A DNA stretch of 64,000 nt from an uncultured Gammaproteobacteria bacterium. GTDB lineage: Bacteria; Pseudomonadota; Gammaproteobacteria; SG8-11. Location of the stretch: assembly GCA_964654485.1 (NCBI GenBank), contig CAZZJI010000007.1:3276-67275 (forward strand), in the 5' to 3' direction. Made by a program: the position numbers and the translations under genes. Positions 23,923-40,263 of the stretch are shown here, in pieces. The notes beneath the pieces are model-generated. The model worked only from the letters and a program-made list of their open reading frames with translations, was not told where the DNA came from and did no database searches. Numbering within the stretch: position 1 is the first letter of the stretch; each line of letters starts with the position of its first letter.

Positions 23923-24402
23923 ATGACCAAAAAGCTTTTGCTTCAATTGTGGTTTGATAAATATTTTTGGTTCGCATTAGCTGCAGCAATATTGTACTGG
24001 GGGGTACTTTTATCACTTAATGTGTGGCTTGGTTCTATTGGGAATTTGCAATTAAACTGGTTTTTTTATCAACCATTATTATTTCTCCTGGTTGGCTTTA
24101 TTTACCCGATATTGGAAGAACTCGTATTTAGAGGATTGATACAGGGAATGATTGCCCGTTATCTTATCAACAATTATCCTACCGGCAATCGTCGATTTGG
24201 AATTATTTCCGTTGCAAACATTGTTACGAGTATTTTATTTGTTTTTTTTCATTTAATATCACATTCGTATTTGTGGGCGATATCTGTTTTTATTCCTTCA
24301 ATAATCTTTGGTTTTTTTCGTGAAAAATACGACTCAGTCGCACCGGCTATTTTATTGCACGTTTATTATAATTTGGGTTACTTTTTGTTATTTCCACCCT
24401 AG
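23923..24402 (+). CDS. CPBP-family intramembrane metalloprotease (CAAX protease-like)
   Basis: Motifs EELVFRGL, FFHLISH and HVYYN correspond to CPBP motifs 1-3. 159 aa with multiple TM helices. Confidence 0.65.
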   Translation: MTKKLLLQLWFDKYFWFALAAAILYWGVLLSLNVWLGSIGNLQLNWFFYQPLLFLLVGFIYPILEELVFRGLIQGMIARYLINNYPTGNRRFGIISVANIVTSILFVFFHLISHSYLWAISVFIPSIIFGFFREKYDSVAPAILLHVYYNLGYFLLFPP

Positions 24403-24438
24403 TACATCGTCAATATAGCCTTGACGATGTACTAGTAC
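24397..24438. repeat. Perfect inverted-repeat element copy A (CTAGTACATCGTCAA-N7-TTGACGATGTACTAG)
   Basis: 14-15 bp arms with a 7-nt loop. Overlaps the TAG stop of the CPBP gene and lies between convergent genes. Confidence 0.85.
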
Positions 24439-24440
24439 TA

Positions 24441-25784
24441 CTATTTATCCGGCTGATTTCGCCCGATAGCGTAATAAGTAAAACCTTCTTGTATCAAAAA
24501 CTGTGGGTCGTAAAGATTACGCCCATCAAAAATGACAGCTTGTTTAAGCATGCTTTTCATTTCTTTGAAATTAGGACTCCTGAACTGGTTCCATTCAGTG
24601 ACGACAATAAGCGCATCTGTGTTGTCCAATGCGGCTTCCGGTGAGTCGCAGAGTACTAATTTTTTGTCGCGGCAGTTATCGCCATAGATGCGTTGTGCTT
24701 CTTTCATCGCCTCTGGATCATAGGCTTTCACTGTCGCACCTTGAGCCCATAGCGCTTCCATCAGCGTTCGGCTCGGCGCCGCCCGCATATCATCGGTATT
24801 CGGTTTAAAAGCCAGTCCCCACAATGCAAATTTACGGCCTTGTAAATCACCTTTGAAGTGTCGATTGATTTTATTAAACAGGACATCTTTTTGGCGATTA
24901 TTGACGGATTCCACCGCTTTTAATAATGCTGCATCATAGCCAATTTGCGTTGCCGTTCGTTCCAATGCTTGCACATCTTTGGGGAAACACGAACCACCAT
25001 AACCGCAACCTGGGTAGATAAATTTATATCCAATCCGAGGGTCAGAACCAATCCCAATACGCACATTTTCGATGTCGGCACCGAGCATTTCCGCCATATT
25101 GGCTAATTCGTTCATAAAACTGATTTTAGTCGCCAGAAGGGCATTCGCTGCGTATTTGGTCAGCTCTGCTGAACGTATATCCATAACAAGGACACGATCT
25201 CGATTTCGATTAAACGGTGTATAGAGTGCGCGCAACAATTCCGCCGTGCGTGGGTTATCGGTGCCAACCACCACACGATCAGGTTTCATGAAATCATCGA
25301 GAGCTGCGCCTTCTTTAAGAAATTCCGGGTTGGATACGACATCAAATTCAATGTTTTGACCTCTGCTTGCAAGGACAGCATTCACCGTATCCTTGACTTT
25401 ATCTGCTGTTCCGACCGGTACCGTCGATTTGTTTACAATAATTCGGTAGTCATTCATGTTTTCACCGATACTGCGCGCGACGGCCAGCACATATTGCAAG
25501 TCAGCTGATCCATCCTCATCCGGTGGGGTCCCCACTGCGACAAATTGGAAAAGACCGTGGTTCACGCCTTTTTCTGTATCAGTACTGAAATTAAGTCGAT
25601 TGGCTGCTACATTCTTTTTCACCAGATCTTCAAGGCCTGGCTCATAGATGGGTAATAAGCCTTTGTTAAGATTGTCGATTTTTTGCTTATCTATATCGAT
25701 GCAAAGGACGTCATTGCCGACTTCTGCCAGGCACGTGCCTGTGACCAGCCCGACGTAACCCGAACCATAAATTGTTATTTTCAT
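24441..25784 (-). CDS. ugd: UDP-glucose 6-dehydrogenase
   Basis: N-terminal [33 protein letters not shown]-binding fold. Catalytic Cys region GGSCFPKD. 447 aa. Confidence 0.9.
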
Positions 25785-25882
25785 CTGTTTGTATGCTCGC
25801 TCAGCTTCTTGGTTTATAATGTCGGCGGTTATTATAGCATAGCGCAGATTTTAGTATTTTATTAATCACTTTTGGAGACAAT

Positions 25883-26857
25883 ATGCATGTATTAGTCTGT
25901 GGTGGTGCAGGATATATCGGTTCACATATGTCGAAACTTCTGGCTGAACAGGGGTATCAGGTGACTGTATTTGATAATTTGTCTACCGGTCATCGGCAAG
26001 CGGTGAAATGGGGGAGCCTGGTCGAGGGTGACTTGCTTGATCCGCAAGCATTGGCTTCGCTGTTCAAATCAAATAAATTCGATGCAGTTATGCATTTTTC
26101 GGCCAAATCGCTGGTCGGGGAGTCGGTACAAAAACCTGATCTCTATTATTTTAATAATGTCGTTGGCAGCTTGAACCTGCTGGATCATATGCGTTTATAC
26201 GGGGTTAATAAATTTGTTTTTTCATCCTCTGCGGCCACATTTGGTCATCCGCAAGTAGCGCTGATCGATGAAAATCACGTGCAAAAACCGATAAATCCTT
26301 ACGGTAAAACCAAATTAGCGGTCGAGTATATGCTTGGCGATTACGCACAAGCCTATGAAATTAGATCGGTTAGTTTGCGCTATTTTAACGCGGCTGGTGC
26401 CGATCCTTCAGGGCAAATAGGCGAGTCTCACGATCCGGAAACCCATCTTATTCCCAACGTGATGAAAGCGGTATTGGGTGAGGGTGCAGGCTTGAAAATT
26501 TTCGGGAATGACTACGAAACACTTGACGGTACGTGTATACGAGATTATATACATGTGAATGATTTGTGTCAGGCACACTTACTTGCGCTACATTATATGG
26601 ATAAAAACAGTGGCGCACATGCGTACAATTTGGGCAATGGGAAGGGGTTTAGCGTACTGGAAGTGATAAACGCAGCCAGTGAAGTGGTTGGTAAAAAAGT
26701 CAAGTATGAAATGGTTGGGCGACGAGTTGGAGATCCGCCGGTGCTTGTGGCGAATAGCAGCAAAATACAAGCGCAATTAAACTGGGTACCGGAATATACG
26801 GAAATCAGTAAAATAATTAGTACTGCCTGGAATTGGCATCAGCACGCGGTTTTTTAA
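25883..26857 (+). CDS. galE: UDP-glucose 4-epimerase
   Basis: MHVLVCGGAGYIGSH Rossmann motif, YxxxK (YGKTK) active-site region. 324 aa. Confidence 0.85.
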   Translation: MHVLVCGGAGYIGSHMSKLLAEQGYQVTVFDNLSTGHRQAVKWGSLVEGDLLDPQALASLFKSNKFDAVMHFSAKSLVGESVQKPDLYYFNNVVGSLNLLDHMRLYGVNKFVFSSSAATFGHPQVALIDENHVQKPINPYGKTKLAVEYMLGDYAQAYEIRSVSLRYFNAAGADPSGQIGESHDPETHLIPNVMKAVLGEGAGLKIFGNDYETLDGTCIRDYIHVNDLCQAHLLALHYMDKNSGAHAYNLGNGKGFSVLEVINAASEVVGKKVKYEMVGRRVGDPPVLVANSSKIQAQLNWVPEYTEISKIISTAWNWHQHAVF

Positions 26858-26892
26858 AATTGATATAAGAAAACAGGTGTTTTTAGCAAGAA

Positions 26893-26928
26893 CTAGTACA
26901 CCGTCAAATACCCTTGACGGTGTACTAG
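26893..26928. repeat. Inverted-repeat element copy B (CTAGTACACCGTCAA-N6-TTGACGGTGTACTAG)
   Basis: Perfect 15-bp arms, 35 bp after the galE stop. Confidence 0.85.
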
Positions 26929-27136
26929 AATAAGAATCAATCGGGACGGCGCATTTCAGGTACCTTGATTAAAAAGCGTACCAGTATTAGGTTCATAGCA
27001 TCTTAGAACAAGTGGTATACAATAATATAATGTTGTTTCTAGAACCAAAATTTACTGGCCAGGTAAGGCGGGGAAAACAGCACAGGTAGCGTAGGAAAGT
27101 AGCATGAAAATGTGCTAGGGAGACGGTTAGTCAAGC

Positions 27137-28558
27137 ATGAATAAAGGTCATCGAATTACACGCGATAAACCTGGGTCCATAGCAAATTTTGTTATGGTTC
27201 TTCTTGGTCCGCTGATTGTCACATTAACGTTAATTGTTGTTACCCATGCCTATGATGTTCGCTATGATGGCGCTTATGTGTCTTTGGCGGTAGTTACATT
27301 TCTGATTTCTTTTATTGTCTTTAAAGAAATTAATCTACATATCTCCTGGCGCACTGGTGGTGTAAGCGCACAAACCAGAGAAATAGTTTTTGCTTGGTTA
27401 GTGTTTGTGAGTATTTTGCTTTTTCTTGGTTATGCCACAAAGTCATCTGAAGTGTTTTCGCGCCGGATTATTTTGACCTGGATAGTGGCGACTCCTTTTA
27501 TAATGTTATTTGTCTATGCCATCGCAAAAATAGTGTTAACGAAAATAATCAAATCTGAAAAATTTTCGAGATCAGTAGTTGTAGTGGGGGTAAACGACTT
27601 GAGTAAAAGCCTGGTTACTGAAATTGCATCGGATCCTCAGCTTAATATGAACTTTAAAGGTTATTTTGACGATAGAAATAATGAAAGATTGGGAAAAATA
27701 GACAATGGTGATGTGCTAGGTAAATTTAGTGGGCTTTCTCAGTATATAAATAAACATAAAATTGATTTGATTTATTTTGCACTACCGATGGTGCAGGAAA
27801 AAAGAATATTAAATTTGCATGATGATGTTCGCGATACCACTGCTTCAATTTATTTTGTACCTGACCTCTTCATATTTGATTTGATACAAGCACGGGTCGA
27901 TGATGTTAATGGTATTCCCGTATTGGCTGTTTGCGAATCCCCGTTTGCAGGTGTAACAGGATTATTGAAGCGCTTAAGCGATATACTGTTTGCGAGCGTT
28001 CTGATATTGCTTGTTTCTCCAATAATGCTGTTGATTGCGATAAGTATAAAAATACTAATGCCTGGTCCCGTGTTATTTAAACAAAAAAGGTATGGTTTGG
28101 ATGGTGAAGAAATTAAAGTTTATAAATTTCGTACCATGAAGCAATGTGATGACTCAACTGATAACAAAGAAGAAAAAGTGGTTCAGGCAACAAGAAATGA
28201 TCCGCGGGTGACTGAGTTAGGTTCCTTTTTAAGGAAAACATCACTTGATGAATTGCCGCAATTTTTTAACGTATTACAGGGCAGAATGAGTGTCGTGGGT
28301 CCACGACCACATGCCGTCGCACACAATGAAGAATATCGAAAATTGATTAAAGGTTATATGATGCGCCATAAGGTTAAGCCGGGTATTACAGGATGGGCGC
28401 AGGTAAACGGCTTGCGTGGAGAAACAGACACAATTGAAAAAATGGAGTCACGCGTGCGTTATGATCTGGATTATTTACGTCATTGGTCACTGGGATTAGA
28501 CGCAATGATCATTATAAGAACAGTGTTGATGATGTTTCGTGACAAGAATGCGTACTAG
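27137..28558 (+). CDS. Undecaprenyl-phosphate glucose/sugar phosphotransferase (exopolysaccharide priming glycosyltransferase, WcaJ/EpsB-like)
   Basis: N-terminal TM helices. C-terminal bacterial sugar transferase domain (…LDELPQFFNVLQGRMSVVGPRP…). 473 aa. Confidence 0.85.
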   Translation: MNKGHRITRDKPGSIANFVMVLLGPLIVTLTLIVVTHAYDVRYDGAYVSLAVVTFLISFIVFKEINLHISWRTGGVSAQTREIVFAWLVFVSILLFLGYATKSSEVFSRRIILTWIVATPFIMLFVYAIAKIVLTKIIKSEKFSRSVVVVGVNDLSKSLVTEIASDPQLNMNFKGYFDDRNNERLGKIDNGDVLGKFSGLSQYINKHKIDLIYFALPMVQEKRILNLHDDVRDTTASIYFVPDLFIFDLIQARVDDVNGIPVLAVCESPFAGVTGLLKRLSDILFASVLILLVSPIMLLIAISIKILMPGPVLFKQKRYGLDGEEIKVYKFRTMKQCDDSTDNKEEKVVQATRNDPRVTELGSFLRKTSLDELPQFFNVLQGRMSVVGPRPHAVAHNEEYRKLIKGYMMRHKVKPGITGWAQVNGLRGETDTIEKMESRVRYDLDYLRHWSLGLDAMIIIRTVLMMFRDKNAY

Positions 28559-28591
28559 TACACCGTCAAAATAGCCTTGACGGTGTACTAG
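28553..28591. repeat. Inverted-repeat element copy C (CTAGTACACCGTCAA-N7-TTGACGGTGTACTAG)
   Basis: Perfect 15-bp arms. The left arm contains the TAG stop of the sugar transferase gene. Followed by CCTTTT. Confidence 0.85.
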
Positions 28592-28633
28592 CCTTTTGTC
28601 AGGTTTGTGGGGCAGGGGGAAAATGCAGTAGGA

Positions 28634-30265
28634 TTATATTTTGCATTTATAGGTCAGTTCTACCGTTCCGTCTTCGTAGACGGTTTCCAGTCTGACAGTA
28701 AACCCCCATAAACGTGCGATATGTTTGGTTACTTCTGCGACTGTTTCTGCCAATGGTCGGCGGTTATATTGGTAGTGCCTTAGAGTCAGTGAACGATCGC
28801 CTTTCATATTGACATCATAAACCTGAATATCGGGTTCGTTTTGTCCAAGATTATATTGTTCCGACAAGGTTTTTTTGATGTGATGGTAGCCTTCGTCGTT
28901 GTGAATAGATGATATTTCAAGTTCAGGTTTGGTATCATCATCCAGTAATGAAAAAAGTTTAAAGTCTCGTATGATTTTGGGAGATAAATATTGTGAAATA
29001 AAACTTTCGTCTTTAAAGTTTCTCATGGCAAAATCAAGTGATTCTACCCAGTCAGTATTTGCCAGATCGGGGAAATAATTCTTGTCCTCTTCGGTAGGAT
29101 TTTCACATATACGCCTTATGTCCTTCATCATGGAAAAACCAAGCGCATAGACATTTATGCCACTGTAGAAGCGACTGTCAAATGAAGGTTGGCTCACCAC
29201 ATTTGTGTGTGATTGCAAAAATTCAATCATAAAGCCGTCAGAAAGAAATCCTTCGTCGTATAGTTGATTGAGCAATGTGTAATGCCAGAATGTTGCCCAG
29301 CCCTCATTCATAACTTGGGTTTGTCTTTGTGGATAAAAATATTGGGCAATTTTACGCACTATACGAACGAGTTCTCTTTGCCATGGTTCAAGTAAGGGCG
29401 CATTTTTTTCTATAAAGTACAAAATATTTTCTTGAGGTTCATCTGGGAAGCGTAAATCAGTTGGTTCAGCATCGTCTGATTCTTTAGTCGGTATTGTGCG
29501 CCATAATTCATTTATCTGAGATTGCAGGTACTCCTCCCGTTCTTTTTGACGGAGCATTTCTTTTTGTATCGATAGATTAGGTGGTCGTTTGTAACGATCT
29601 ACACCGTAATTCATTAAGGCGTGGCAGGAATCCAGAATTTCCTCAACTTGTTTTTCACCATAACGTTCTTCACATTTGGCCACGTAGTTCTTCGCGAATA
29701 GAAAATAATCAATAATGGCGTCGGCATTTGTCCAGGTTTTGAATAAGTAATTATTTTTAAAAAAAGAATTATGACCATAAGCAGCATGTGCGATAACCAA
29801 TGCCTGCATCATCATGGTGTTTTCTTCCATGAGGTAGGTAATGCATGGGTCAGAGTTAATCACAATTTCGTAAGCCAGCCCCATTTGACCACGTCGGTAG
29901 CGTTGCTCGGTCGCGAGAAATTGTTTTCCGAACGACCAATGAGAATAGCCTAATGGCATACCCACAGATGCATAGGCATCCATCATTTGTTCTGCAGAAA
30001 TTATTTCAATTTGAATTGGATAAGTGTCTAACTTGAATTGAGAAGCAACGCGCTCAATTTCTTTATTGTATCTATCTATTAATTCGAAAGACCACTCTGA
30101 CGTATTAGAAATTATTTTCCCTCTCTTTTTAACAGCTGTCTTTTTGGAGGTTTGTTTGGTTACTTTGCCAGATGCCTTTTTCAATACATTGTTGGATTGT
30201 TGGCCCGCCCTTTTTTTAGACGGATTGACGGTTTTCCTGTTATCTGTATCAGTTTTAGAATTCAT
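28634..30265 (-). CDS. ycgB: SpoVR/YcgB-family protein with Lys-rich N-terminal extension
   Basis: SpoVR-like body (...[17 protein letters not shown]...HWSFGKQF...). Last gene of the prkA-yeaH-ycgB triad. Start overlaps the yeaH stop by 4 nt. Confidence 0.8.
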
Positions 30266-31521
30266 GACGGTTGTTTTTTAAAAAGCTCTCTAAATACGGG
30301 ATAAATTTCAGAAATATTTTCAATACGCTGCATCGCGAAATTTTCACATGCCATTTTCACATTTAGATATTCACGCCACAGGTTTTGTGGATTATCATTT
30401 GATATTTCTATATAAGAATAATATTGTACACACGGTAATATTGAATTCGCCAACAAATCTCGACAAATTGGTGAGTCATCGTTCCAGTTGTCACCATCAG
30501 AGGCCTGTGCGGCGTATATATTCCATTCATCTGTTGGAAAGCGATCTTTAATAATTTCATGCATTAATTTTAGTGCACTGGATACAACGGTACCGCCGGT
30601 TTCTCTGGAATAGAAAAAATTTTCTTCGTCAACTTCTTTGGCAATTGTATGGTGAGAAATAAATACAATTTCTATCTTTTCGTATGTGCGTGTTAAAAAT
30701 AAATAAAGCAAGATAAAAAATCGTTTTGCGATATCTTTTTTCATTTGGTCCATTGAACCCGATATATCCATCAAACAAAACATAACAGCGTGTGTTGATG
30801 GTCGTGGTAGTTTTATTCGGTTGTTATATCTTAGGTCAAACGGGTCGATAAAGGGAATCGCAGCTATTTTTTTCTTTAGCGATTCTATTTCTTTCTTCAA
30901 TTCAAAAACTTTAGGGCGGTATTCATCAGTGACTAGCAATAGTGCAGACAATGCCTGTTCTGCTTCTTTTAATTGTCTTTTGTATGGGTTCTGTAGGGCG
31001 ATGCGTCTGGACAGCGCGCCCCGCAAAGAGCGAACAATATTAATATTTGAAGGTATACCATCTGAGCTGTGTCCCGCGCGCACGCTCTTAAATTCTTTAA
31101 TGGTCGTCAGTTTGGTTTTCACCAAATTGGGGAGCGCGAGGTCTTCAAAAAAGAATTCCAAAAACTCTTCTTTAGAGAGTTGGAATACAAAATCATCCAG
31201 ACCTTCACCGCTGTTACTCGCTTTATTTCCTTTGCCACCACCTTGTGGCGGACGGGGGATTTTATCGCCGGTAGAAAATTCTTTATTTCCAGGTAAAATA
31301 TTATCTCGACGCCCCCCCGGTCCGTGACGAAAAGTGGGTTCGGAAATATCTTTGGCAGGAATGGTAACGGATTCACCTTTCTCAACATCTGTGATGCTGC
31401 GGCCCGCGATGGCATCTGTAACGGCCCTTTTAATATTGGATTTAAAGCGCTTTAGAAATTTACGGCGGTTTACCGCGCTTTTATTTTTGCCGTTAAGCCG
31501 TCTGTCGAGTATTTGTGCCAC
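30262..31521 (-). CDS. yeaH: YeaH/DUF444 (UPF0229) family protein
   Basis: 419 aa with Gly/Arg/Pro-rich N-terminal half and conserved C-terminal VWA-like region. Sits between PrkA kinase and SpoVR as in the conserved triad. Confidence 0.8.
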
Positions 31522-31531
31522 ATCATCGCCT

Positions 31532-33460
31532 TTAAGATGATTTTCTGACTCGTAAGTACCACTCGCAAAGCAATCGGACTTGTTTTTGTGTGTAGCCTTT
31601 TTCGGTCATGCGATCGACAAAATCTTCATGTTTCTTCTGTTCATCCCCCGAGCTTTTTGCATTAAACGAGATAACCGGGAGTAAGTCTTCGGTATTTGAA
31701 AACATTTTCTTTTCAATAACCGTGCGAAGTTTTTCGTAACTTGACCATTGTGGATTTTTACCGTCATTCTGCGCACGTGCGCGTAGTACAAAATTGACTA
31801 TTTCATTTCGAAAATCCTTGGGATTGCTTATGCCCGCCGGTTTTTCTATTTTTTCCAATTCGTCATTAAGGGCTGCCCGGCTAAATATTTCACCGGTATC
31901 AGTGTCACGATAATCTTCATCCTGAATCCAGTAATCTGCATAGGTAACATATCGATCAAAGATATTCTGACCATATTCTGAATACGATTCCAGATAGGCT
32001 TTCTGAATTTCTTTGCCAATAAATTCTATATACCGTGGTGTTATAAATCCTTTGATATAGGACAGGTAACGCTCTTCAATTTCTGCTGGAAATTGCTCGC
32101 GTTCAATTTGCTGTTCCAGTACATAAAGCAGATGCACTGGGTTGGCCGCAATTTCACTGTTATCGAAGTTAAATACTTTGGATAGAATTTTAAACGCAAA
32201 TCGGGTGGATAACCCCGTCATGCCTTCATCAACGCCAGCATAATCCCGGTATTCCTGGTAGGATTTTGCATTTGGATCTGTGTCTTTCAGGTTTTCGCCG
32301 TCATATACACGCATTTTCGAAAAGATATTGGAATTTTCTGGCTCTTTCAAACGTGAAAGTGCGGCAAACTGGGCCATCATTTTAAGCGTGCCGGGTGCAC
32401 ATGGCGCGTTGGCAAGAGAACTGTTTTCAAGCAATTTGTTATAAATATTTACTTCTTCCGAACAACGAAGGCAATAGGGCACCTTAACGATATAGATACG
32501 ATCAAGGAAGGCCTCATTATTTTTATTGTTCCTGAACGATATCCATTCTGATTCATTTGAATGTGCCAGGATTAGTCCCTCGAAAGGAATCGCTGCCAAA
32601 CCTTCAGTGCCTTTGTAATTATTTTCCTGTGTTGCCGTCAGCAGCGGGTGAAGTACTTTAATGGGCGCCTTGAACATTTCAACAAATTCGAGCATGCCAC
32701 GGTTTGCCTGGCATAGACCACCGGAGAAACTGTATGCATCTGGATCATCCTGGGAAAAGTTTTCCAGCATGCGAATATCGACTTTACCGACAAGTGAGGA
32801 AATATCCTGATTGTTTTCATCACCTGGTTCCGTTTTCGAAATACCTATTTGTTCCAATACAGAAGGCCGTATTTTTACAACTTTAAATTTAGTGATATCA
32901 CCATTAAATTCGTGTAAGCGTTTTACCGCCCATGGCGACATGATGGTGTTGATGTAGCGTTTGGGTATACCGAAATCTTCTTCCAGAATCTGGGCATCTT
33001 CTTCAGGAGAGAAGAGTCCGAGTGGTGATTCGTTGATAGGAGAGCCTTTAATGGCATAAAAGGGCATTTTTTCCAGTAAAGACTTAAGTTTCTCCGCCAA
33101 TGATGATTTACCACCACCAACCGGGCCGAGTAAATACAATATCTGTTTTCTTTCTTCCAGCCCCTGGGCCGCATGTCTGAAAAAAGAAACGATTTGCTCG
33201 ATGACCTCTTCCATGCCATAGAAGTCTTTAAACGCTGGATAGATTTTTATGACTTTATTTGAAAAGAGTCTGCTTAGCCGCGGGTCGGTTTTCGTATCGA
33301 TCAGTTCAGGCGTGCCGATTGCCTCTAGCATGCGCTCTGCAGCAGTGGCATAGGCGATCGGATCTTTTTTGCATATATTCAAATATTCCTGGAGGCTAAG
33401 CTCCTCTTCCTTCGACTCTTCGTAGCGGGATGTAAAATGAGTAAATATAGACATGGTCAT
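31532..33460 (-). CDS. yeaG: PrkA-family serine protein kinase (YeaG)
   Basis: 642 aa. Walker [18 protein letters not shown]. PrkA AAA+ and C-terminal domains. Confidence 0.85.
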
Positions 33461-33924
33461 CGCCTCTTCGTCGTGGATAGTTCATTAAATATGAGTGAAC
33501 TATGAATTAGTGAATTATCCTTACTTCTTATATCGGCCTTATTCACTGTTTCTTTGCAGCACTTGATTACTTAGGTTTTAATCACTGTTTAGCCTCTTTT
33601 GAAACAAGACTCTGCAAAAAATGAGCCAACTAAACAAAATATATAACTGCGTAAGTAAAGTGCGTCTCCGTTGATAATAAAACCTTGAATTATTGATTAA
33701 TTAACGTTTTTGCAAAAATGGCCTCCGTCATCATGCGGATAACTGGATCGTTCCTATTTGACAAATTATCCTAAAAAATAAACACTTGTGTCATTAACAT
33801 GACAGATAACTCTATCGTTAGTTATACCCTTTCTTCTAAGTTACGACTAGGAAACAGGTCAATAGTTTGAATTTATTTTTAGTTTGTTTGAGTTGCTTTA
33901 TATAGAATTAAGTCGAGTCTGACC

Positions 33925-33958
33925 TCGTACACCGTCAAGGCTTTTTGACGGTGTACTA
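33925..33958. repeat. Inverted-repeat element copy D (GTACACCGTCAA-N6-TTGACGGTGTAC, shorter arms)
   Basis: 12-13 bp arms in the 0.9-kb ORF-free region upstream of prkA. Confidence 0.8.
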
Positions 33959-34356
33959 ATATTTGACCTGACGGTATAAAAATGTTGTGAGATACGCACA
34001 ATAAATTCAATCGCTGCAATAATTGCTCACATAATGACCAGTCAGAATGATGATATCGTAAGTCAGTATTTGCAATCGATATTAACTAAACTATCGCTAC
34101 CAACTCGACGCCACTAAAAACAGCTTCGGACTCGAAATAAGGTTATCAATATAGAAAGTATAACAGTTATTTTATGTAGGACACTGAGACGGATTGCTAC
34201 GCTCGGAACTTAAGATAGATTAAAGGTATTGTTAAAGAGCCGTTATCAGGATCAGCGTTAATTATTGTTGGCTAATTCAAGACATTAGCCAACAATAATT
34301 CAGGACACAGTATTGTTAATAGCGAACTGCCTTTTTCACTTTTCGCTATTGTATCT

Positions 34357-34746
34357 CTAATGCTTAAATTTATTTTTATTAAAATAAATTATTTGCGCTG
34401 TTGCATGTTGCATTGGTTTTGATATTGGTACAGCGTTCAGTTTCGGTTCCACCAGTAATTTTACCGTGGAAACCAAGCCATTATCGCCGGTGACCGCATC
34501 CCACATCATTGATGATAATTTAATGCAGGCACCCAATGGAGTACGTGCTTTTTTTCGCTCCATATCAATGCGAAATTGTAAGCCTCGTAATCGTCTTTGT
34601 TTGGAAATAGGAATACGCTCGAAAAATTGCTCAATGTAATTCTGACGGCGTTGTTCAAATCCTTCTGGATCATTACTGGCCAGATTAGCCCATTCATCGA
34701 AATCAATTCGAGTGCTTTTTTTGAAATTTTGTTTAATATTTGACAT
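34357..34746 (-). CDS. Small hypothetical protein (possibly DUF3135-like)
   Basis: 129-aa ORF with N-terminal FDEWANLASNDPEGFEQRRQ motif. Family assignment is from memory only. Confidence 0.35.
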   Translation of the reverse strand: MSNIKQNFKKSTRIDFDEWANLASNDPEGFEQRRQNYIEQFFERIPISKQRRLRGLQFRIDMERKKARTPLGACIKLSSMMWDAVTGDNGLVSTVKLLVEPKLNAVPISKPMQHATAQIIYFNKNKFKH

Positions 34747-35082
34747 CTGAAACTACCTTATTTTGCTGCGAGAACATTGTACAACATGATCAATGGTTCA
34801 CTCACGGGACACCGATGACTCTATATAACCGCGTAAATATAACGGTTATTGTTTGTGTCCAGCACTTAGTTAAATTTTACCTGTAACGTGCCGGTTAGGC
34901 TATGAAACGGCTAATATTTATCTATATAAGAACACGCTGAAAAGCACTGAATAATTTATTTTGATTTTTATAACATAATAAAAACAAATAGATAGAAATG
35001 CGAGCAGTATCAAGTAAAAGTCGGGGGTTCGGGCTGTATTGCCTAAATGTTGTATTTTTGCGGTAGAAATGTGATGTGCCAT

Positions 35083-35130
35083 ATGGCGACCCGGAGACGA
35101 TTCGAACGTCCGATGTGGCTTAGCAGGGGG
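35083..35130 (-). other. tRNA/tmRNA-like 3'-terminal fragment (T-arm + acceptor 3' strand + CCA) with no 5' partner
   Basis: Reverse complement reads GGACGTTCGAATCGTCTCCGGGTCGCCA, a T-loop GTTCGAAT with CCA end. No matching 5' acceptor strand (GACCCGG) within about 400 nt. Confidence 0.4.
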
Positions 35131-35419
35131 TGTTTTTTAAAAAAATTAGATTTCCATGACCAAGTAAAGATAAAAATACGGGCCTCATATACGTGTAGGC
35201 AAGGACCGGTTGCGGTCAATGCTTTCGGCTTTACTTGCTGTCTCGCAGGCTTTGATCTCTGCTGATGCGTCAGAAATCTTTCTGCCTTCAATATTCGGTA
35301 AAAACTAGCCTCTGAGGCGATATAGCGTCGTTCATCCTTGTGTCGGAGAAATTATGAAACTAACTACATTAATATATTGCGCTCCATCCAGGCTACGTTA
35401 GTTTTATAATATGTCTCGC

Positions 35420-35779
35420 TTATCTGTTGGTAATTAATTTTGGTTGGCTGAGTTGAAATACACCATTGTGTGCGCCGCCAATATATTCAGCACATACATT
35501 AAGGCATTCACCCACGTGAAAATTCTTAAGAGATTCAAAACAAAATCCCTCGGCAACTTTACCTACAGACGCAAATTGTGGTCCAAAGACTGGATTGATA
35601 CTTAATACTTCAAACTTGACCAGCCATTTGCGCTCATCATCGGGAGTCTGTGAACATTCCAACAGCCGGATTTCCAATTGTGACTCATTGGGTGCAACAG
35701 AAACTGAACCAAATCGTGGTGGTACTGGCCGTGGTGGTACTGGCATGGTGGAAACCTCGTGACAAAACGTATAGGACAA
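35420..35779 (-). CDS. Hypothetical protein (last gene of the protease islet; likely start at MPVPPRP...)
   Basis: 119-aa ORF, Pro-rich N-terminus, co-directional and 60 bp downstream of the M6 protease gene. Confidence 0.4.
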   Translation of the reverse strand: MSYTFCHEVSTMPVPPRPVPPRFGSVSVAPNESQLEIRLLECSQTPDDERKWLVKFEVLSINPVFGPQFASVGKVAEGFCFESLKNFHVGECLNVCAEYIGGAHNGVFQLSQPKLITNR

Positions 35780-35839
35780 CTAACTGCTCGGCATCAAATA
35801 GGGCAATGCCGAGCAGTTGATAGACCAGTATAAACTACA

Positions 35840-37405
35840 TTAGCCAAGATATACACGATATAGCGTATCGTTGTCGACATAAACAGTCACTAAATTGTTA
35901 TTTGCCCGTGCCTCACATAAGGCAGTAAAGGCATTGGTAACGCCATCAGGGTTTCCTGTTTTTATTTTTCGCCACCCTAGCCCCTGAATGTTTGCCCAAG
36001 CATTTTGAGAATGGTAACTAGTGTAGAGACGATTAACAATTTTGTTTGTATGCCACTCCTTAACCGCTGCTCCACCGACGTTAATATTGGCCGTTATATT
36101 TTCTCCCACGCGAGTAATCGCGGAAACATTGACTTCGGAGCCAGTACCATCATACGCGTTGCTGTTGGGCGTGGTCGTAGAATTAAAAGCGTTATTTCCA
36201 TTGAAAGGAAAAGTATCTCCACTGTCTCCGGAATTCGCATTACTGTTCAAGTCTCGCTTGCCATCAGCTTGTTCGATATCTACGAGGTAATGCGCTTCGT
36301 CTGTGTTATTTGATTGATTGTCATCAACATGTTCGATAATACAGCCCTCTCCTGGTAGATAAGAATCAAAACCCAGTTTTTGTCGATTCGCTACCAAAAA
36401 ATACTCTTTTGAATCTGCGCTGCCAATCGGCAATTTATAAACATCACCATTATTGAAATAAGGTTTAATATTTACACTTTGCGCACTATTGAATACCGTC
36501 GTTGAGGAAATCCAACCGGCTTTCAGTTTACACCAGGCAGACGGATGCGCTGGTGTGTGACCGTTGTTGTTCCAGCTGCCTCCGGCCATCAAATCCCATC
36601 GACCGGTACCACGTGATGAATAATCGGTGTCATACAGATCTGGCCAGCTCATTAATAAATGGCCTAGTTCATGTGACATAACACCTACCCGACCATCTTC
36701 CGGCGCCATGAAATAGCTACGTATTTGCACGCCGTTTACCGTCTTCGGCGTAATCGACCACTTGTGCGACCAAAAATCGCTTTTGTCACCCGTCGCTTCA
36801 GCGCCAGAACCAGCGGGAATGATAATCAATGCGTCTACTACACCATCACCATCATTATCGTATTGCGCAAAGTTAATATGAGGAGCAGCAAGATCAATGA
36901 CATCCTCTACCAGTTTCTGAGCGTTACGCGGGTAGTCTGCGAAACCGTAATCTTCATTGGTATAATATGATTTGGGTTGCGGTGCCCGATACCAGCCTAC
37001 AGTGACACCGCCGCTTCCGCCAACTTCGCCAACAATATCCAATTTACCGTATGAGGCTTCCCGGTAAAAGTCGTTCATGCTTCCACCAGCATAAGTTCCG
37101 CTGGAAAAGAGCATATCTCTAAAGTGTGACTGCGTTTGTGTTCCCGCCTTGTCTGAAAAATCCACCAGCAGAACCAAGGCCCTACGTGTGCCGACGATAG
37201 GGCTTAAACCCTTAGTGGGTGAGATCAGGGTATGAGCCCGAGTTTTAGGTGGACGCATCAAGATTTTCGTTGCACTTTCTCGATCGAGAACTTCGTCATC
37301 TGCTTTTTCAGGAAGTTCAAGACCAATACGTAGGCGGTGTTTTGAACGGATAATTTTCTCCTCCAATTCTGGTGAAGGAGGTGCGATACAAAGATTGTTG
37401 GACAT
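35840..37405 (-). CDS. M6-family (immune inhibitor A-like) metallopeptidase domain protein fused to an unrecognised C-terminal domain of about 75 aa
   Basis: HExxH in SHELGHLL. M6-like N-terminal block ALVLLVDFSDK. No signal peptide. The C-terminal 75 aa (YTSYHSQNAWANIQGLGWRKIKTGNPDGVTN...YRVYLG) is repeated in two nearby small ORFs. Confidence 0.7.
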   Translation of the reverse strand: MSNNLCIAPPSPELEEKIIRSKHRLRIGLELPEKADDEVLDRESATKILMRPPKTRAHTLISPTKGLSPIVGTRRALVLLVDFSDKAGTQTQSHFRDMLFSSGTYAGGSMNDFYREASYGKLDIVGEVGGSGGVTVGWYRAPQPKSYYTNEDYGFADYPRNAQKLVEDVIDLAAPHINFAQYDNDGDGVVDALIIIPAGSGAEATGDKSDFWSHKWSITPKTVNGVQIRSYFMAPEDGRVGVMSHELGHLLMSWPDLYDTDYSSRGTGRWDLMAGGSWNNNGHTPAHPSAWCKLKAGWISSTTVFNSAQSVNIKPYFNNGDVYKLPIGSADSKEYFLVANRQKLGFDSYLPGEGCIIEHVDDNQSNNTDEAHYLVDIEQADGKRDLNSNANSGDSGDTFPFNGNNAFNSTTTPNSNAYDGTGSEVNVSAITRVGENITANINVGGAAVKEWHTNKIVNRLYTSYHSQNAWANIQGLGWRKIKTGNPDGVTNAFTALCEARANNNLVTVYVDNDTLYRVYLG

Positions 37406-37488
37406 GGTTTTTTCCTCTTTTTATTGTTAGATTCGATACAAAATTCCTTGCTCTATAGGCGAAGATTCAGTTCCATTTTTGTCTTCGT

Positions 37489-37797
37489 TCAAGCGACCTC
37501 ATGAACATGGATTACCATTTTCTCAATGGATTGCGCCATGGGTACCCGGTACGCTTGCATACTAAGTAAATCACCAAGCTCTATTTTCGGATGACCAGAC
37601 AGGCTCACATGGGCACGAATGATGTAGTCCGATGCGGGATCGCGGACAACGAAGTCTATCGAAAACGATACCGATGTTTTCATGCCAGCTTGGTGGAACA
37701 CATGGTTAATTCGCAAACTAGTTAACTTTATTGAAGATCCATCCAGCATGCCAACGTCTTCCGCGTAAACATACAAAACCGCATCCGCCTGTCGCAA
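37489..37797 (-). CDS. Hypothetical small protein
   Basis: 102-aa ORF tightly packed between the disordered-protein gene and the M6 protease gene. Confidence 0.4.
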   Translation of the reverse strand: MRQADAVLYVYAEDVGMLDGSSIKLTSLRINHVFHQAGMKTSVSFSIDFVVRDPASDYIIRAHVSLSGHPKIELGDLLSMQAYRVPMAQSIEKMVIHVHEVA

Positions 37798-37800
37798 TGC

Positions 37801-38241
37801 TTACTTTTTAGTACTGCTTCGCGAGCTTGCTTTCTTAGTCGTTGGCTTTACCTCTGATTTATCTTCTAAATCAGGCGGCGGTGGTGCATCTTGCGACTGC
37901 GTTTCATCCAAACCAGGTGCCGGTACTACTATGCTACCTATGCTACCGTTCTTGATACTATGGAAAGATTCGTCGGAGAGTGGCCCAGGTGCGCTATCCA
38001 AGTTTGCTAGCGTATCTGCATTCTGCGTAACTTCTTCAGGACCTGGCGCCCCAGAAAAAGCGGCGCTTTCAGTGGCAGCCGACGACTGACCAGCCTCGGG
38101 ACCCGGTGCCGCATTAACGTCCATCTGTATACCAGAAAATGCCAAGTTATGCGGTGCGGGGGCTTCGGCCAAGTCAGCACTTGAAGTATTTTTTAAGAAC
38201 TCCCCGCCCATGGGAATTTTAATCGTGATTTCCGGGATCAT
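37801..38241 (-). CDS. Hypothetical low-complexity protein with APGPE-type repeats
   Basis: 146 aa with the motif (A/S)APGPE three times, a PPPP stretch and a Lys/Ser-rich tail. 3 nt from the next ORF. Confidence 0.45.
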   Translation of the reverse strand: MIPEITIKIPMGGEFLKNTSSADLAEAPAPHNLAFSGIQMDVNAAPGPEAGQSSAATESAAFSGAPGPEEVTQNADTLANLDSAPGPLSDESFHSIKNGSIGSIVVPAPGLDETQSQDAPPPPDLEDKSEVKPTTKKASSRSSTKK

Positions 38242-38316
38242 TTTTCATTCTCCTATAATTTATTTGATGGAACACAATGGCTGCAGTACTGCAGCCATTG
38301 ACAGCCGACATACATC

Positions 38317-38535
38317 TCAATTCATATACGCACGTTCAATAAGATTCTCGACAATATAGACACTAACGGTACGATTATTGGCTTTAGCAACGCTCAGCAA
38401 AGTAAAAGTATTGGTGACGCCATCACTGTTATCAGTTTTTATTTTTCTCCATCCAAGACCATCTATCCGCGCCCAACCATTTTGTGAATGAAAAGTTGTA
38501 TAAGTTTGAAGAACGGCTTTATTATTATTCCACAT
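38317..38535 (-). CDS. Stand-alone copy of the protease C-terminal domain (small protein; ORF opens at 38598, likely start at MWNNN)
   Basis: YTTFHSQNGWARIDGLGWRKIKTDNSDGVTNTFTLLSVAKANNRTVSVYIV aligns residue-for-residue with the C-terminus of the 35840-37405 protein. Confidence 0.55.
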   Translation of the reverse strand: MWNNNKAVLQTYTTFHSQNGWARIDGLGWRKIKTDNSDGVTNTFTLLSVAKANNRTVSVYIVENLIERAYMN

Positions 38536-38657
38536 GATAGTTTCCTCTTTTTTGTTGTTGTAAAAATTTTTTTTCATCAAGATTCGAAGGCAATCCAAAC
38601 TACGACGCTTGCTTTTACTAAAATTATTTATTTTTTATTAAATTATAACGTCTTAAT

Positions 38658-38948
38658 CTAACTTATAAATTTAATTTTATTATTTAAATAGACCCGATAA
38701 ATGCTGCTACCATTTGCAAACACATTGATGGTTCGGTTATTTGCCTTTGCCTCGCATAAAACAACAAAGGTATTGGTAACGCCATCAGAATTACCGATAT
38801 TAATTTTTATCCAACCCAAACCTTGAATTAACGCCCAGGCATTTTGCGAGTGATAAGTCGAATAAACTCGGCCAACGGTATTGTGCGCCGCTGACTGCAA
38901 CGCCCATTTCAAGGTCGTCTTGTGTTGCATCAATATCATCGCCTGCAA
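38658..38948 (-). CDS. Second stand-alone copy of the same domain (ORF overlaps the 38800-39147 ORF in another frame)
   Basis: VYSTYHSQNAWALIQGLGWIKINIGNSDGVTNTFVVLCEAKANNRTINVF...YRVYLN is a third paralogous copy of the domain. Confidence 0.5.
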   Translation of the reverse strand: MQAMILMQHKTTLKWALQSAAHNTVGRVYSTYHSQNAWALIQGLGWIKINIGNSDGVTNTFVVLCEAKANNRTINVFANGSSIYRVYLNNKIKFIS

Positions 38949-39147
38949 GCTTAGCCTGGGTGCGGCTCTTCATCTCTTCTGCGGTACCCAGTACGATATC
39001 GCCTTCGAACAAAGCAAGTCCATCAACAACTGTGTATTGTACTGGCTTATTTTTAAATGTAAGGCCAGAAACGAAACCGGTAAAAATTTCGTCGCCGGAT
39101 TGAAACTCAGTACTTTCGCTTTCGCTTTCGGTATCTTGGTTCGCCAT
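38800..39147 (-). CDS. Hypothetical acidic protein; possibly an N-terminal piece of a frameshifted gene continuing into 38658-38948
   Basis: 115-aa ORF (MANQDTESESESTEF...QYTVVDGLALFEGDIVLG...). Its 3' 149 nt overlap the domain ORF out of frame. Confidence 0.35.
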   Translation of the reverse strand: MANQDTESESESTEFQSGDEIFTGFVSGLTFKNKPVQYTVVDGLALFEGDIVLGTAEEMKSRTQAKLAGDDIDATQDDLEMGVAVSGAQYRWPSLFDLSLAKCLGVNSRFGLDKN

Positions 39148-39459
39148 AGGTTTGTTAGTATTATTATTAATTCCTTCTGCTCACCAAAGCTGAGTGAAAT
39201 CTATTCTTGCAATCGCGTCTATTTTTCACAGTGATAAATTACCCCGGTACTTGTGAAATATTTACTTTGTGATTAAATATTATTCTAATGACTTAAGTTA
39301 AAAACGGTATTTCGAAGTCGATCCCGGAGTGGGTCCCATAGTCAAGACAGTAATCCAAAAATATATGTTGTGACACAGTTTGGGTACAACTGAAGGCATG
39401 GAGGTGAAATTGGGTTGTTGTACTACGTTACGCGGGTATGAGTTATTTCAAAAGAGAAA

Positions 39460-39536
39460 TGGCCCGCTCGAATGGATTCGAACCATCGGCCTGCCCCTTA
39501 GGAGGGGGCTGCTCTATCCAGCTGAGCTACGAGCGG
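39460..39536 (-). tRNA. tRNA-Arg (anticodon CCU)
   Basis: Reverse complement is CCGCTCG-TA-GCTC-AGCTGGATA-GAGC-A-GCCCC-CTCCTAA-GGGGC-AGGCC-GATGG-TTCGAAT-CCATT-CGAGCGG-G-CCA. It forms a clean cloverleaf with an encoded CCA. Confidence 0.85.
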
Positions 39537-39595
39537 TTTGGGGTATTATACAGGATTTGACTGTTAACTTAAGTGCGTTTCCCTAATGATTGTTA

Positions 39596-39637
39596 GCTTA
39601 GGAGGCGACTGCTCTATCCGACTGTGCTACCGGGGCA
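39596..39637 (-). pseudogene. Truncated tRNA-Arg(CCU)-like 5' fragment (acceptor through anticodon loop)
   Basis: Reverse complement GCCCCGG-TA-GCAC-AGTCGGATA-GAGC-A-GTCGC-CTCCTAA-GC, then unrelated sequence. One D-stem mismatch and no 3' half. 60 bp from the intact tRNA-Arg on the same strand. Confidence 0.6.
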
Positions 39638-39690
39638 ACAAACGTGTATTGAATAATCTTGTTGTTACACTAAAATAAATATCGAGTGAT

Positions 39691-39987: not shown

Positions 39988-40263
39988 TGTTAATCGTGTT
40001 GTAATAAAACTTTGTCCCAGTCGTCTTTAGTTATTCTAGTTAAGGAACCAGTTAAGTAATCGTATTAAGTAATGGGATATTAGTCACCGGACTAAGAAGA
40101 TCGCATATTATAGCCTAATAAAAAAGAGTATAAATCGAAATATCCCGTGTTGATTAAATAATAGTGCTAGTATTAGCCGGTTTTTGCGGTGATAGATGTA
40201 AATCTTCAGATAAAAAAATGCCTATACAAACGAAATATAAACAGGTTGTCGGGGTTTTAACAA

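Follow-up and report, generated by a model that had tools for sequence, protein, structure and literature searches.

A hairpin repeated between genes

A hairpin sequence, CTAGTACAYCGTCAA-N6/7-TTGACGRTGTACTAG, occurs in four intergenic copies in the 64-kb window (the whole stretch of DNA analysed here), beside ugd, galE, a sugar transferase gene and prkA. Is it a signal shared by these genes, or a repeat that has spread without regard to them? The earlier note on this DNA had described four copies, all between genes, and the counts bear this out: eight matches to an arm were found in the window against 0.08 expected by chance, and four full hairpins against 0.00. A covariance model scan of the 64 kb yielded no further or degenerate copies beyond these four (Table 1). 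In an Rfam scan of the window only a tRNA reached the gathering score, and between 24300 and 28700 there was no meaningful match at E<=5.

Table 1. Copies of the hairpin in the window.
Copy	Position	Strand	Arms (left / right)	Stem	Loop	Score (bits)
A	24399..24435	+	CTAGTACATCGTCAA / TTGACGATGTACTAG	15 bp, T-A variant pair	TATAGCC	62.7
B	26893..26928	+	CTAGTACACCGTCAA / TTGACGGTGTACTAG	15 bp, perfect	ATACCC (6 nt)	56.2
C	28555..28591	+	as copy B	15 bp, perfect	AATAGCC (consensus)	67.1
D	33924..33959	-	CTCGTACACCGTCAA / TTGACGGTGTACTAA		GGCTTT (AAAGCC on - strand)	51.5

Compared with the earlier description, copies A and C begin 2 nt further in and copy A ends 3 nt sooner. Copies A, B and C are perfect 15-bp inverted repeats as described, whereas copy D has 12 perfect pairs (33927-33956), 13 of 15 overall, with degenerate feet CTCG/CTAA; judged by its loop, it also lies in the opposite orientation to the other three. 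The T/A change in copy A is indeed compensated. It had been taken to mean that the palindrome is being maintained, but maintenance is not required, as descent of a subfamily or template-switch correction would also fit.

The left CTAG of copy A includes the TAG stop codon (24400-24402) of a CAAX-protease gene, and the copy ends 5 nt ahead of the stop of ugd, the two genes being convergent. The left CTAG of copy C likewise includes the TAG stop (28556-28558) of the WbaP-like sugar transferase gene, 42 nt ahead of the stop of spoVR, which is convergent with it. The overlap of two copies with a TAG stop, in each case inside the left arm, was thus correctly noted before. Copy B lies 35 nt past the galE stop and 208 nt ahead of the transferase start. 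Copy D is in the middle of a spacer, 398 nt past the stop of a DUF3135 gene and 464 nt ahead of the prkA start, so the earlier placing of each copy at a gene end does not extend to it. The genes flanking the copies are conserved housekeeping genes in an order that is fixed in relatives; this, together with the perfect stem, the lack of a GTTRRRY core and the absence of an integrase among the window ORFs scanned, led us to reject an integron attC site.

Presence and turnover among relatives

In six syntenic relatives, with SpoVR identities of 83-95%, these genes are all present but copies A, B and C are missing. The gene order of the window with zero copies is seen in L027 (87-88% nucleotide identity), L028, L030, L073 and L074. 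L029 (95% nucleotide identity) lacks copies B and C and has a copy of its own in the spacer upstream of prkA, about 300 nt from the position of copy D, at a place where the window is empty. Copy A is also found in the strain contigs L046 and L072 and is absent from L027 and L073; copy B is absent from all of L027, L028, L029, L030, L073 and L074, and copy D from L027, L028 and L029. Their presence and absence in these sequences show that the copies are recent lineage-specific insertions and not conserved parts of the ugd, galE, transferase and prkA loci.

The sites themselves also change. In contig L046, which is 98.9% identical, site B holds a different subfamily member in inverted orientation, CTAATACTCCGTCAA-GGTTATA-TTGACGGAGTATTAG. 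L013 and L018 are orthologous loci in which the loop stands in exactly opposite orientations, and in L004 and L069, with flanks ~94-98% identical, the feet differ by a compensated change and an indel. Among strains of one species, then, copies turn over, invert and are replaced.

Dispersal and structure of the family

The earlier note had reasoned that hundreds of copies scattered regardless of gene boundaries would point to a generic REP element and exclude a local regulatory role, and that copies confined to this locus would speak against one. Neither was found: there are ~46 further non-redundant copies, spread over MAGs of 12 other species and contigs from metagenomes, giving dozens in total, and all are intergenic. 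Genuine loci number 23 in MAGs of 12 GTDB species, plus ~30 from metagenomes, and the hosts are uncultured Gammaproteobacteria of one clade, from marine, vent and sediment settings. No common synteny or recurrent neighbouring gene was found at these other copies, and the adjoining genes are unrelated. Exact-core copies number one to four per incomplete MAG, with variant subfamilies escaping the exact pattern, and the source population has about 15-19 sites; beyond the four in the window, ~15 lie in contigs likely to derive from it.

The element is 37 bp long with a 15-bp stem and a loop of 6-7 nt, and pairing stops exactly at the fifteenth pair, falling to the level of chance one position beyond. 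Across the copies 96.4% of stem cells are paired and five pairs have changes on both sides; none of 500 shuffles matched the observed paired percentage, the number of double-changed cells or the covariation score. Position 9 of the stem is C-G in 36 copies, T-A in seven and G-T in three, and a TACTCC/GGAGTA subfamily is seen in L046 and L041. The feet, which are present at both ends and base-paired, are CTAG in 23-25 of 46 copies per side or else the variants CTGG, CCAG or TTAG. The canonical unpaired 5′ tag GT[AG]G (or CGTC) is absent from the feet of the copies examined.

Precise insertion and strand polarity

Three pairs of filled and empty sites reveal a precise insertion of 33 nt at a pre-existing TAG. 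At site C, compared with L027 and L029, the empty sequence is GCGTAT-TAG-CATTTT and the filled one GCGTAC-TAG-[33 nt]-CCTTTT; at the L029 site they are GAGCG-TAG-CAATCC and GCGCC-TAG-[33 nt]-CAACCC, and at site A CCACCT-TAG-TACCC and CCACCC-TAG-[33 nt]-TACTAC. These comparisons show that insertion at the TAG adds 33 nt and gives C-TAG-TAC...GTA-C-TAG. The C before the TAG is found only in the filled state, in all three pairs; it could alternatively arise after insertion through correction of the palindrome. A clean 33-nt insertion was not obtained for copy D or site B. The tetranucleotide CTAG is fourfold depleted in the window (59 observed against 237 expected), and feet of the element make up 6 of the 14 CTAGs outside ORF bodies. 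The three pairs thus display what is looked for in transposition of the IS200/IS605 type, a precise insertion beside a short target without direct target duplication.

The orientation of the element was judged from its loop. GC skew over 2-10 kb served as a stand-in, and no more than that, for the direction of replication. By this measure 37 of 47 sites have the AATAGCC loop on the strand that is locally G-rich (p ~1e-4), or 34 of 43 after removal of orthologous duplicates. Where skew and gene direction are in conflict the loop follows the skew by 14:3. The element therefore has a polarity, marked by the conserved loop, that follows the replication strand as far as skew stands for it; the locally G-rich strand is presumably the lagging-strand template. 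The replication-fork bias expected of an IS200/IS605-type element is seen in these 34 of 43 sites, and the same kind of strand bias is known for the IS200/IS605 single-stranded DNA transposons (PMC3971601, PMC6006769).

Comparison with known elements

The proposal in the earlier note of a REP-like family holds in kind, the copies being dispersed, intergenic, variable in relatives and divided into compensated subfamilies, though they number dozens and not hundreds and lack the GTAG tag. REP/BIME sequences with their RAYT (TnpA_REP; E. coli, Pseudomonas and Stenotrophomonas; the GTAG super-family) are likewise short extragenic palindromes of 20-40 bp, dispersed and mostly downstream of genes; the present element is 37 bp, with ~50 genuine copies that are all intergenic. 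Further likenesses are subfamilies with complementary stem changes and G-T pairs, and a TAG-containing tetranucleotide at the foot with CT where TnpA_REP cuts (PMC3479197, PMC3733652). However, the REP foot GT[AG]G is single and unpaired, whereas CTAG stands here at both ends and is base-paired. Described REP families have stems of 6-13 pairs and shorter loops (PMC3733652), against 15 perfect pairs and a conserved loop of 7 nt. REPs occur in hundreds per genome, against dozens in total, and their RAYT gene is flanked by repeats, whereas none of the copies here was seen to have a RAYT beside it. REPs are also normally species-specific (PMC6006769), while here one sequence is common to many species. 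The family is common to several species and departs from canonical REPs in two of their defining traits: it lacks the unpaired GTAG tag and, in the sequence around the copies, a flanking RAYT gene was not found.

The ‘double-foot’ REPs of TnpA-Y1 subclass 2.4 (Quentin et al. 2018, PMC6006769) have a 5′ tag and its 3′ reverse complement, as a self-complementary CTAG foot also gives. Their feet, however, read GT[AG]G / C[TC]AC, their hosts are chiefly Cyanobacteria and Bacteroidetes, and they lie on either side of their tnpA gene or even within it; none of this was seen here (PMC6006769). The CGTC-tagged REPs (Di Nocera et al. 2013, PMC3733652) are palindromic extragenic repeats that, as here, have no dedicated transposase found nearby, but they carry an unpaired CGTC at one end and belong mainly to Alphaproteobacteria, whereas CGTC is found here only inside the stem (PMC3733652). 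With IS200/IS605 elements (IS608, ISDra2) and their miniature derivatives the family shares a hairpin-dependent, precise insertion beside a short target, no true target duplication, and an orientation tied to the lagging-strand template (PMC3971601, PMC6006769). In contrast to the single perfect hairpin of 33-37 nt without a gene, an IS200/IS605 element has two unlike, imperfect subterminal hairpins and tnpA and/or tnpB.

Proposed mechanism

A local regulon does not account for the palindromes. We think it probable that they are an active, dispersed, REP-like family of single-strand hairpin transposons, and that they are moved in trans, probably by an HUH-type enzyme. The mobile form would be a hairpin of single-stranded DNA, on the template of the lagging strand, cut and rejoined at C|T of both CTAG feet by an enzyme acting in trans, most likely an HUH Y1 protein (RAYT / IS200-type). 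TnpA_REP of E. coli cleaves at C|T, where the A and G of the tag on the foot of the hairpin act as its guide (PMC3479197), and in the present element the CT of each foot pairs with the AG of the opposite foot. CTAG would be the target, and survivors would accumulate between genes and on C-TAG stop codons because CTAG is rare and insertions within genes would be lethal. The simplest account of four copies in 10 kb would be local hopping. Effects of the hairpins on mRNA 3′ ends, or on termination where a UAG lies in a stem, may be by-products.

The 0.57 Mb surrounding ~50 copies yielded no HUH-Y1-like ORF and no transposase of another kind. Were such a gene flanked by exact-core copies, a REPtron-like arrangement would be expected among these ~50 loci. 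Also weighing against this reading are the missing unpaired tag, a stem and loop longer than in described REP families, a copy number that looks low beside the hundreds of canonical REPs, and the occurrence of one 37-mer in species with orthologues only 65-69% identical, which could instead indicate a selected host function.

It is conceivable, and we put it forward tentatively, that this is a previously undescribed system of single-stranded DNA hairpin transposition. A gene-less 33-nt unit would both carry and target C|TAG, and at either foot the cleavage site would pair with a guide-like AG from the other foot. An enzyme encoded elsewhere, such as a member of a TnpA-Y1 subclass without known substrate, would move it on the lagging-strand template. 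Its master sequence would be kept across several genera, and strong hairpins would be placed systematically on UAG stops, since few targets other than C-TAG stop codons are tolerated. Finding the enzyme could give an orphan HUH subclass a substrate or bring to light a further mechanism by which very short hairpins move. To the study of mobile DNA the family offers a compact, apparently active case, in which copies are gained, lost, inverted and replaced inside a single species and the target (CTAG), the unit length (33 nt) and the strand polarity can be read from natural filled and empty sites. The insertions at TAG stops are a natural test of what a strong hairpin at the stop codon does to termination and mRNA decay, and the copies are useful for telling strains apart in metagenomes.

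Alternative explanations

The alternative that survives best, although we consider it unlikely, is that the hairpins are selected as RNA, serving as bidirectional terminators or 3′ mRNA stabilisers that insulate or stabilise neighbouring transcripts whatever their origin. REPs in E. coli have been reported to stabilise mRNA, to terminate transcription and to stall ribosomes near stop codons (PMC12306157, PMC6006769). Hairpin stability is high, at -22 to -27 kcal/mol as RNA (-12.6 to -15.8 as DNA), which answers the fold-energy check proposed in the earlier note; copies A and C lie between convergent genes, and on the AATAGCC strand G-T pairs outnumber A-C mismatches by 19:10. There is also a mild enrichment just past gene 3′ ends (9 copies within 10 nt against 5.3 expected, 19 within 50 nt against 13.7). 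Yet close relatives run the same operons without the hairpins, and convergent spacers are not enriched (6 convergent, 24 tandem and 6 divergent). A consensus terminator scan found copies B (- strand), C and D terminator-like, and a T-run follows copy C alone on the + strand, as noted before; family-wide, the GC-rich hairpin with a U-tract of an intrinsic terminator is not the pattern, a T- or A-rich flank being present at only 8 of 46 copies. The loop orientation tracks GC skew instead of gene direction and is mixed relative to the upstream gene (16 sense and 8 antisense by hand count). One sequence over many loci and species is unlike independent terminators, and since it is identical at unrelated loci it did not evolve as such. 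The terminator or stabiliser role suggested earlier is possible as no more than a side effect.

We regard it as improbable that a DDE transposase, of the IS630/Tc1 or IS5 type, mobilises the hairpin as a miniature inverted-repeat element with the 12-15 bp arms as terminal inverted repeats. Transposases of these types have CTAG/YTAR targets, of which TA or CTAG is duplicated: IS630 targets CTAG with duplication of TA, and IS5 targets YTAR. These preferences fit the CTAG at both ends and the insertion at TAG, where CTAG looks like the target. Bacterial MITEs are small non-autonomous repeats with inverted ends, TA-containing targets and hairpins in their transcripts, all of which the element resembles. 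Correia-type and other bacterial MITEs, however, are at least 100-150 bp long, have direct target duplications and are mobilised by DDE-type enzymes. The present element is far shorter, its arms only 6-7 nt apart, and transposase-binding ends so close together on duplex DNA presumably could not synapse. Neither a full-length parent bounded by such ends nor an arm pair 1-2 kb apart turned up. Target duplication should leave direct repeats, whereas the outer bases covary as inverted complements: feet other than CTAG are mostly of this kind (CCAG...CTGG in L001 and L016, CTAA...TTAG in L003, CTGG...CCAG in L069), and direct-repeat feet are found in L015 only. A replication-strand bias has not been reported for IS630 or IS5 (PMC3971601).

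Very unlikely, in our view, is a binding or processing site of a conserved host factor, chromosome-structuring or replication-associated, that is gained and lost like matS- or parS-type sites and kept identical across genera by selection. It would accommodate the low copy number, the orientation with the replication strand, and the identical 37-mer, loop included, that is shared by MAGs with GC contents of 38-55% and by orthologous spacers with flanking proteins only 65-69% identical. However, the fast gain, loss and replacement within one species, the precise insertion at CTAG, the subfamilies with compensated stems and the partial and duplicated arms that adjoin some copies are signatures of transposition, not of conserved sites.

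The operator of a dimeric transcription factor co-regulating ugd, galE, the priming transferase and prkA, as the earlier note had also proposed, is scarcely credible: the perfect dyad symmetry, the clustering of four copies around these genes and the conservation across species would suit it, but promoter placement and orthologous conservation are both lacking, given that the six syntenic relatives have the same loci without copies A-C, that A and C lie between convergent 3′ ends, and that copies elsewhere adjoin unrelated genes and avoid 5′ ends (0 within 10 nt against 2.7 expected). It is also contradicted by the spacer forming the loop, which is conserved yet can flip in place, and by the compensated stem changes. 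Upstream of prkA itself, a conserved promoter block, including a sigma-54-type element, lies ~300 nt from copy D. In annotation, the palindromes are better masked as a mobile repeat than read as an operator or regulon signal of the exopolysaccharide and prkA genes.

Four hairpins of one family in the window

In a pattern search of the 64-kb window, the form GTACAYCGTCAA-N6/7-TTGACGRTGTAC was matched by exactly four hairpins, where none is expected by chance; this confirms the palindromes described in the earlier note. The perfect 15-bp arms ascribed to all four hold for copies A, B and C and not for copy D (Table), whose loop reads on the minus strand, so that it is inverted relative to A–C. 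The hairpins are predicted to fold with −22 to −27 kcal/mol as RNA and with −12.6 to −15.8 as DNA, shuffled controls being far weaker, and a covariance model of the family run over the window gave no additional copy, intact or degenerate. Two copies do overlap TAG stop codons, the left CTAG of copy A including the stop of the CAAX-type protease gene and that of copy C the stop of the WbaP-like sugar transferase gene. Copy B lies 35 nt beyond the epimerase stop and copy D midway along the 900-nt spacer that precedes prkA. The description of the copies as intergenic holds for all of them, in the window and at the other loci.

Table. Features of the window. For the hairpins the strand is that on which the loop is given.
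Feature	Position	Strand	Remarks
CAAX-type protease	23923–24402	+	
Copy A	24399–24435	+	loop TATAGCC; perfect 15-bp arms, CTAG at both ends
UDP-glucose dehydrogenase	24441–25784	−	
Epimerase	25883–26857	+	
Copy B	26893–26928	+	loop ATACCC; perfect 15-bp arms, CTAG at both ends
WbaP-like sugar transferase	27137–28558	+	
Copy C	28555–28591	+	loop AATAGCC; perfect 15-bp arms, CTAG at both ends
SpoVR / DUF444 / PrkA operon	28634–33460	−	
TGGC-N8-TGCA	33613–33628	−	TGGCTCATTTTTTGCA
Copy D	33924–33959	−	loop AAAGCC; 12 perfect pairs; degenerate feet CTCG, CTAA
17-bp inverted repeat	34260–34300		AATTATTGTTGGCTAAT-N7-ATTAGCCAACAATAATT, perfect
DUF3135 gene	34357–34746	−	
Variable island	~34900–40240		
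13-bp inverted repeat	35782–35818		AACTGCTCGGCAT-N11-ATGCCGAGCAGTT, perfect
M6-type peptidase	35840–37405		
13-bp-arm palindrome	38275–38300		CAATGGCTGCAGT/ACTGCAGCCATTG, gapless
tRNA-Arg(CCT)	39460–39536	−	

The copies are absent from syntenic relatives

SpoVR homologues of 83–95% identity were used to reach six syntenic contigs. L027 (GCA_964632225.1; 87–88% nucleotide identity), L028, L030, L073 and L074 are syntenic with zero copies. L029 (95% nucleotide identity) lacks copies B and C and has one copy in the DUF3135–prkA spacer, about 300 nt away from the position of D; reciprocally, the window has no copy at this site, nor has L029 one at site D. Copy A is also found in the strain contigs L072 (99.98% identical to the window) and L046 (98.9%). 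Judged from these sequence comparisons, the window copies are recent insertions. The proposal that they form an operator shared by the neighbouring genes fails because the relatives keep these genes in unchanged order and lack these palindromes. The block conserved upstream of prkA also lies elsewhere than copy D and includes an invariant TGGC-N8-TGCA. This sequence, TGGCTCATTTTTTGCA, matches sigma-54 promoter spacing and precedes the prkA start by about 150 nt; it is invariant in four relatives, within a long, strongly conserved block of the spacer.

Insertion occurs at TAG

Three sites allowed filled and empty alleles, with and without the element, to be compared, and in all three a 33-nt insertion is seen at a TAG that was already present. 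At sites A and C the TAG in question is the stop codon; insertion leaves the reading frame unaltered.

Table. Empty and filled alleles.
Site	Empty	Filled
A	CCACCT-TAG-TACCC (L027)	CCACCC-TAG-[33 nt]-TACTAC (window)
C	GCGTAT-TAG-CATTTT (relatives)	GCGTAC-TAG-[TACACC...GGTGTACTAG]-CCTTTT (window)
L029 site	GAGCG-TAG-CAATCC (window)	GCGCC-TAG-[33 nt]-CAACCC (L029)

The empty state of site B is not definable, L029 having a deletion of about 200 nt there and L027 being unalignable, and copy D gave no clean junction in the comparison with relatives. At all three comparable sites a C precedes the TAG in the filled allele only. Most simply, CTAG is the target and the TTAG or GTAG of the relatives are non-targets; alternatively, the C could arise by correction of the palindrome after insertion. 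CTAG is the rarest palindromic tetranucleotide of the window, being fourfold under-represented (59 against 237 expected from base composition), and six of the 14 CTAGs outside ORF bodies are feet of the element.

Stem covariation

Structure statistics were taken over 46 non-redundant copies; since the inner stem is imposed by the search pattern, it is uninformative for pairing. Beyond the searched TAC...GTA core, the next four positions are paired in 42, 35, 33 and 34 of the 46 copies, while the fifth position outward is at chance level (12/46). Overall 96.4% of cells are paired and five pairs have changes on both sides; none of 500 shuffles matched the observed paired-cell percentage, the number of both-side-changed cells or the covariation score. 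Subfamilies also occur, such as TACTCC...GGAGTA with the loop TATAACC in L041 and L046. Feet other than CTAG are mostly inverted complements (CCAG...CTGG, CTAA...TTAG, CTGG...CCAG), so that the feet act as part of the hairpin or as guide–target partners and not as a direct target duplication; a model of TA or CTAG target duplication was rejected for this reason.

Distribution across genomes and metagenomes

A single exact-pattern scan of 185,579 species genomes gave 25 loci, 23 with the same feet and loop, distributed over 12 MAG species of uncultured Gammaproteobacteria at one to four per MAG. These MAGs are WFXD01, JANTGD01, JAADHS01, WFQM01, JAADIL01, QIGJ01, CAJVYS01, JAADGF01, JAJRWE01, CAZWUO01, JAKIUF01 and JALUUZ01. 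The metagenome scan gave 41 loci, about 30 of them genuine, including L046; about 15 distinct sites are in contigs sharing the window-like GC content of 40–44%. L007/L062, L008, L026/L047, L040, L044, L064, L068 and L070 were excluded as chance matches, either because CTAG feet and the loop consensus are missing or because they lie in genes or high-GC contigs. The only match among the viral contigs scanned was high-GC and unrelated, so the element is not phage-borne. No locus from the species-genome and metagenome scans is syntenic with the window, and no neighbour genes recur beyond large paralogue families (histidine kinases, GGDEF proteins, M48 peptidases). Copies are mildly enriched at distances of up to 10 nt from gene 3′ ends (9 against 5.3 expected) and depleted near 5′ ends (0 against 2.7).

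Turnover at orthologous sites

At site B, L046 has a member of another subfamily, oppositely oriented; relative to copy B, two pairs show compensated changes and the loop is flipped, while the flanks differ at few positions. Between the orthologous loci L013 and L018 the arms agree fully and the loop is exactly inverted, and L004 and L069 differ by a compensated foot change and a 4-nt indel at the element edge, in flanks about 94–98% identical. L019 and L063 are orthologues with only 65–69% protein identity, and 35 of 37 element positions are identical; the left foot of L019 is CCTG, not CTAG, the element stands at differing distances from the upstream stop and the rest of the spacers is unalignable.

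Fragments of the element accompany some copies: an arm-to-arm junction GGCGGTGTACTAGTACATCGTC in L012 (~95–125), a solo right arm in L033 (~505–530), 130 nt downstream of a full copy, and duplicated left ends in L021 (5113–5132) and L052 (704–722). These were all that a search for a full-length IS bounded by the arms returned. By hand count, about 12 of 30 whole metagenome contigs have an end no more than 400 nt from a copy (L033, L038, L042, L045, L046, L048, L050, L053, L056, L058, L060, L069) against about 4 expected, which suggests assembly breaks from strain heterogeneity at those sites. A second short repeat, CTAGGAGCCTGTCGG(G/A)CTTAGG, directly adjoins the hairpin at three MAG or metagenome loci of higher GC (L001 ~4255–4300, L055 ~4235–4282, L048 ~107–140), suggesting BIME-like mosaic clusters of different small repeats.

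Strand polarity and a possible mechanism

The AATAGCC strand is the locally G-rich strand at 37 of 47 loop-oriented sites (p ~1e-4), or 34 of 43 without orthologous duplicates. At 17 loci skew and majority gene direction conflict, and there the loop follows skew 14:3. The locally G-rich strand presumably has the sequence of the lagging-strand template. IS200/IS605 elements transpose in single-stranded form with a replication-linked orientation bias (PMC3971601, PMC6006769), and the TnpA_REP of E. coli recognises a hairpin and foot tag, the A and G of which guide its cut at C|T (PMC3479197). Each foot of our element is C|TAG, its CT pairing with the AG of the opposite foot. If both C|T sites were cut, a 33-nt strand TAGTAC...GTAC would be freed and CTAG would remain; once joined into a further C|TAG, the strand would restore the 15-bp stem seen in the copies. 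Such a cut-and-join mechanism, which we infer, would account for the 33-nt insertions, the required C, the inverted-complement feet, the strand bias and the repeated use of site B. Neither an HUH nor any other transposase was found in 0.57 Mb around the copies; HUH...Y motif regexes gave no match there, nor did a tblastn search for a RAYT near the copies, a weak test as the query was an approximate E. coli YafM.

Comparison with known families

In kind, the element is best classed with REPs or single-strand hairpin transposons. The REP-like reading of the earlier note was right to this extent, the element being short, extragenic, palindromic and dispersed, with compensated subfamilies. However, the unpaired GT[AG]G or CGTC tag and the flanking RAYT of canonical REPs (PMC3733652, PMC6006769) are missing, the stem is longer and perfect, the loop long and conserved, the copy number apparently low, and one master sequence extends across many species. 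Among described families it comes closest to the 'double-foot' REPs of TnpA-Y1 subclass 2.4 and to the transposase-less CGTC REPs. Termination or mRNA stabilisation, also suggested earlier, is at most a by-product, and a canonical terminator was rejected, a T- or A-rich flank occurring in only 8 of 46 copies. A DDE-type MITE was rejected, the search having found no full-length IS with these arms and the variant feet being mostly inverted complements. A SECIS- or PYLIS-like recoding hairpin at UAG was dismissed because the ORFs stop identically in relatives without the hairpin. The element is not an attC site, and an 11-nt coincidence of the arm with the IS1096 inverted repeat, of opposite polarity with respect to the element end, was rejected. 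Rfam yielded no family, whether scanned at gathering or at E-value thresholds, and a literature search for the arm sequence otherwise returned primers only.

Other features of the window

L029 conserves the perfect 17-bp inverted repeat that follows the DUF3135 gene by about 57 nt, and L027 does so in part; the repeat is unrelated to the CTAG family. The variable island adjoins the tRNA-Arg(CCT) gene and contains the M6-type peptidase and several small ORFs; the small unknown ORFs have no Pfam match. This stretch is missing in L027, and in L028 a PIN toxin pair is in its place. The island also holds the perfect 13-bp inverted repeat, between two ORFs, and the gapless palindrome.
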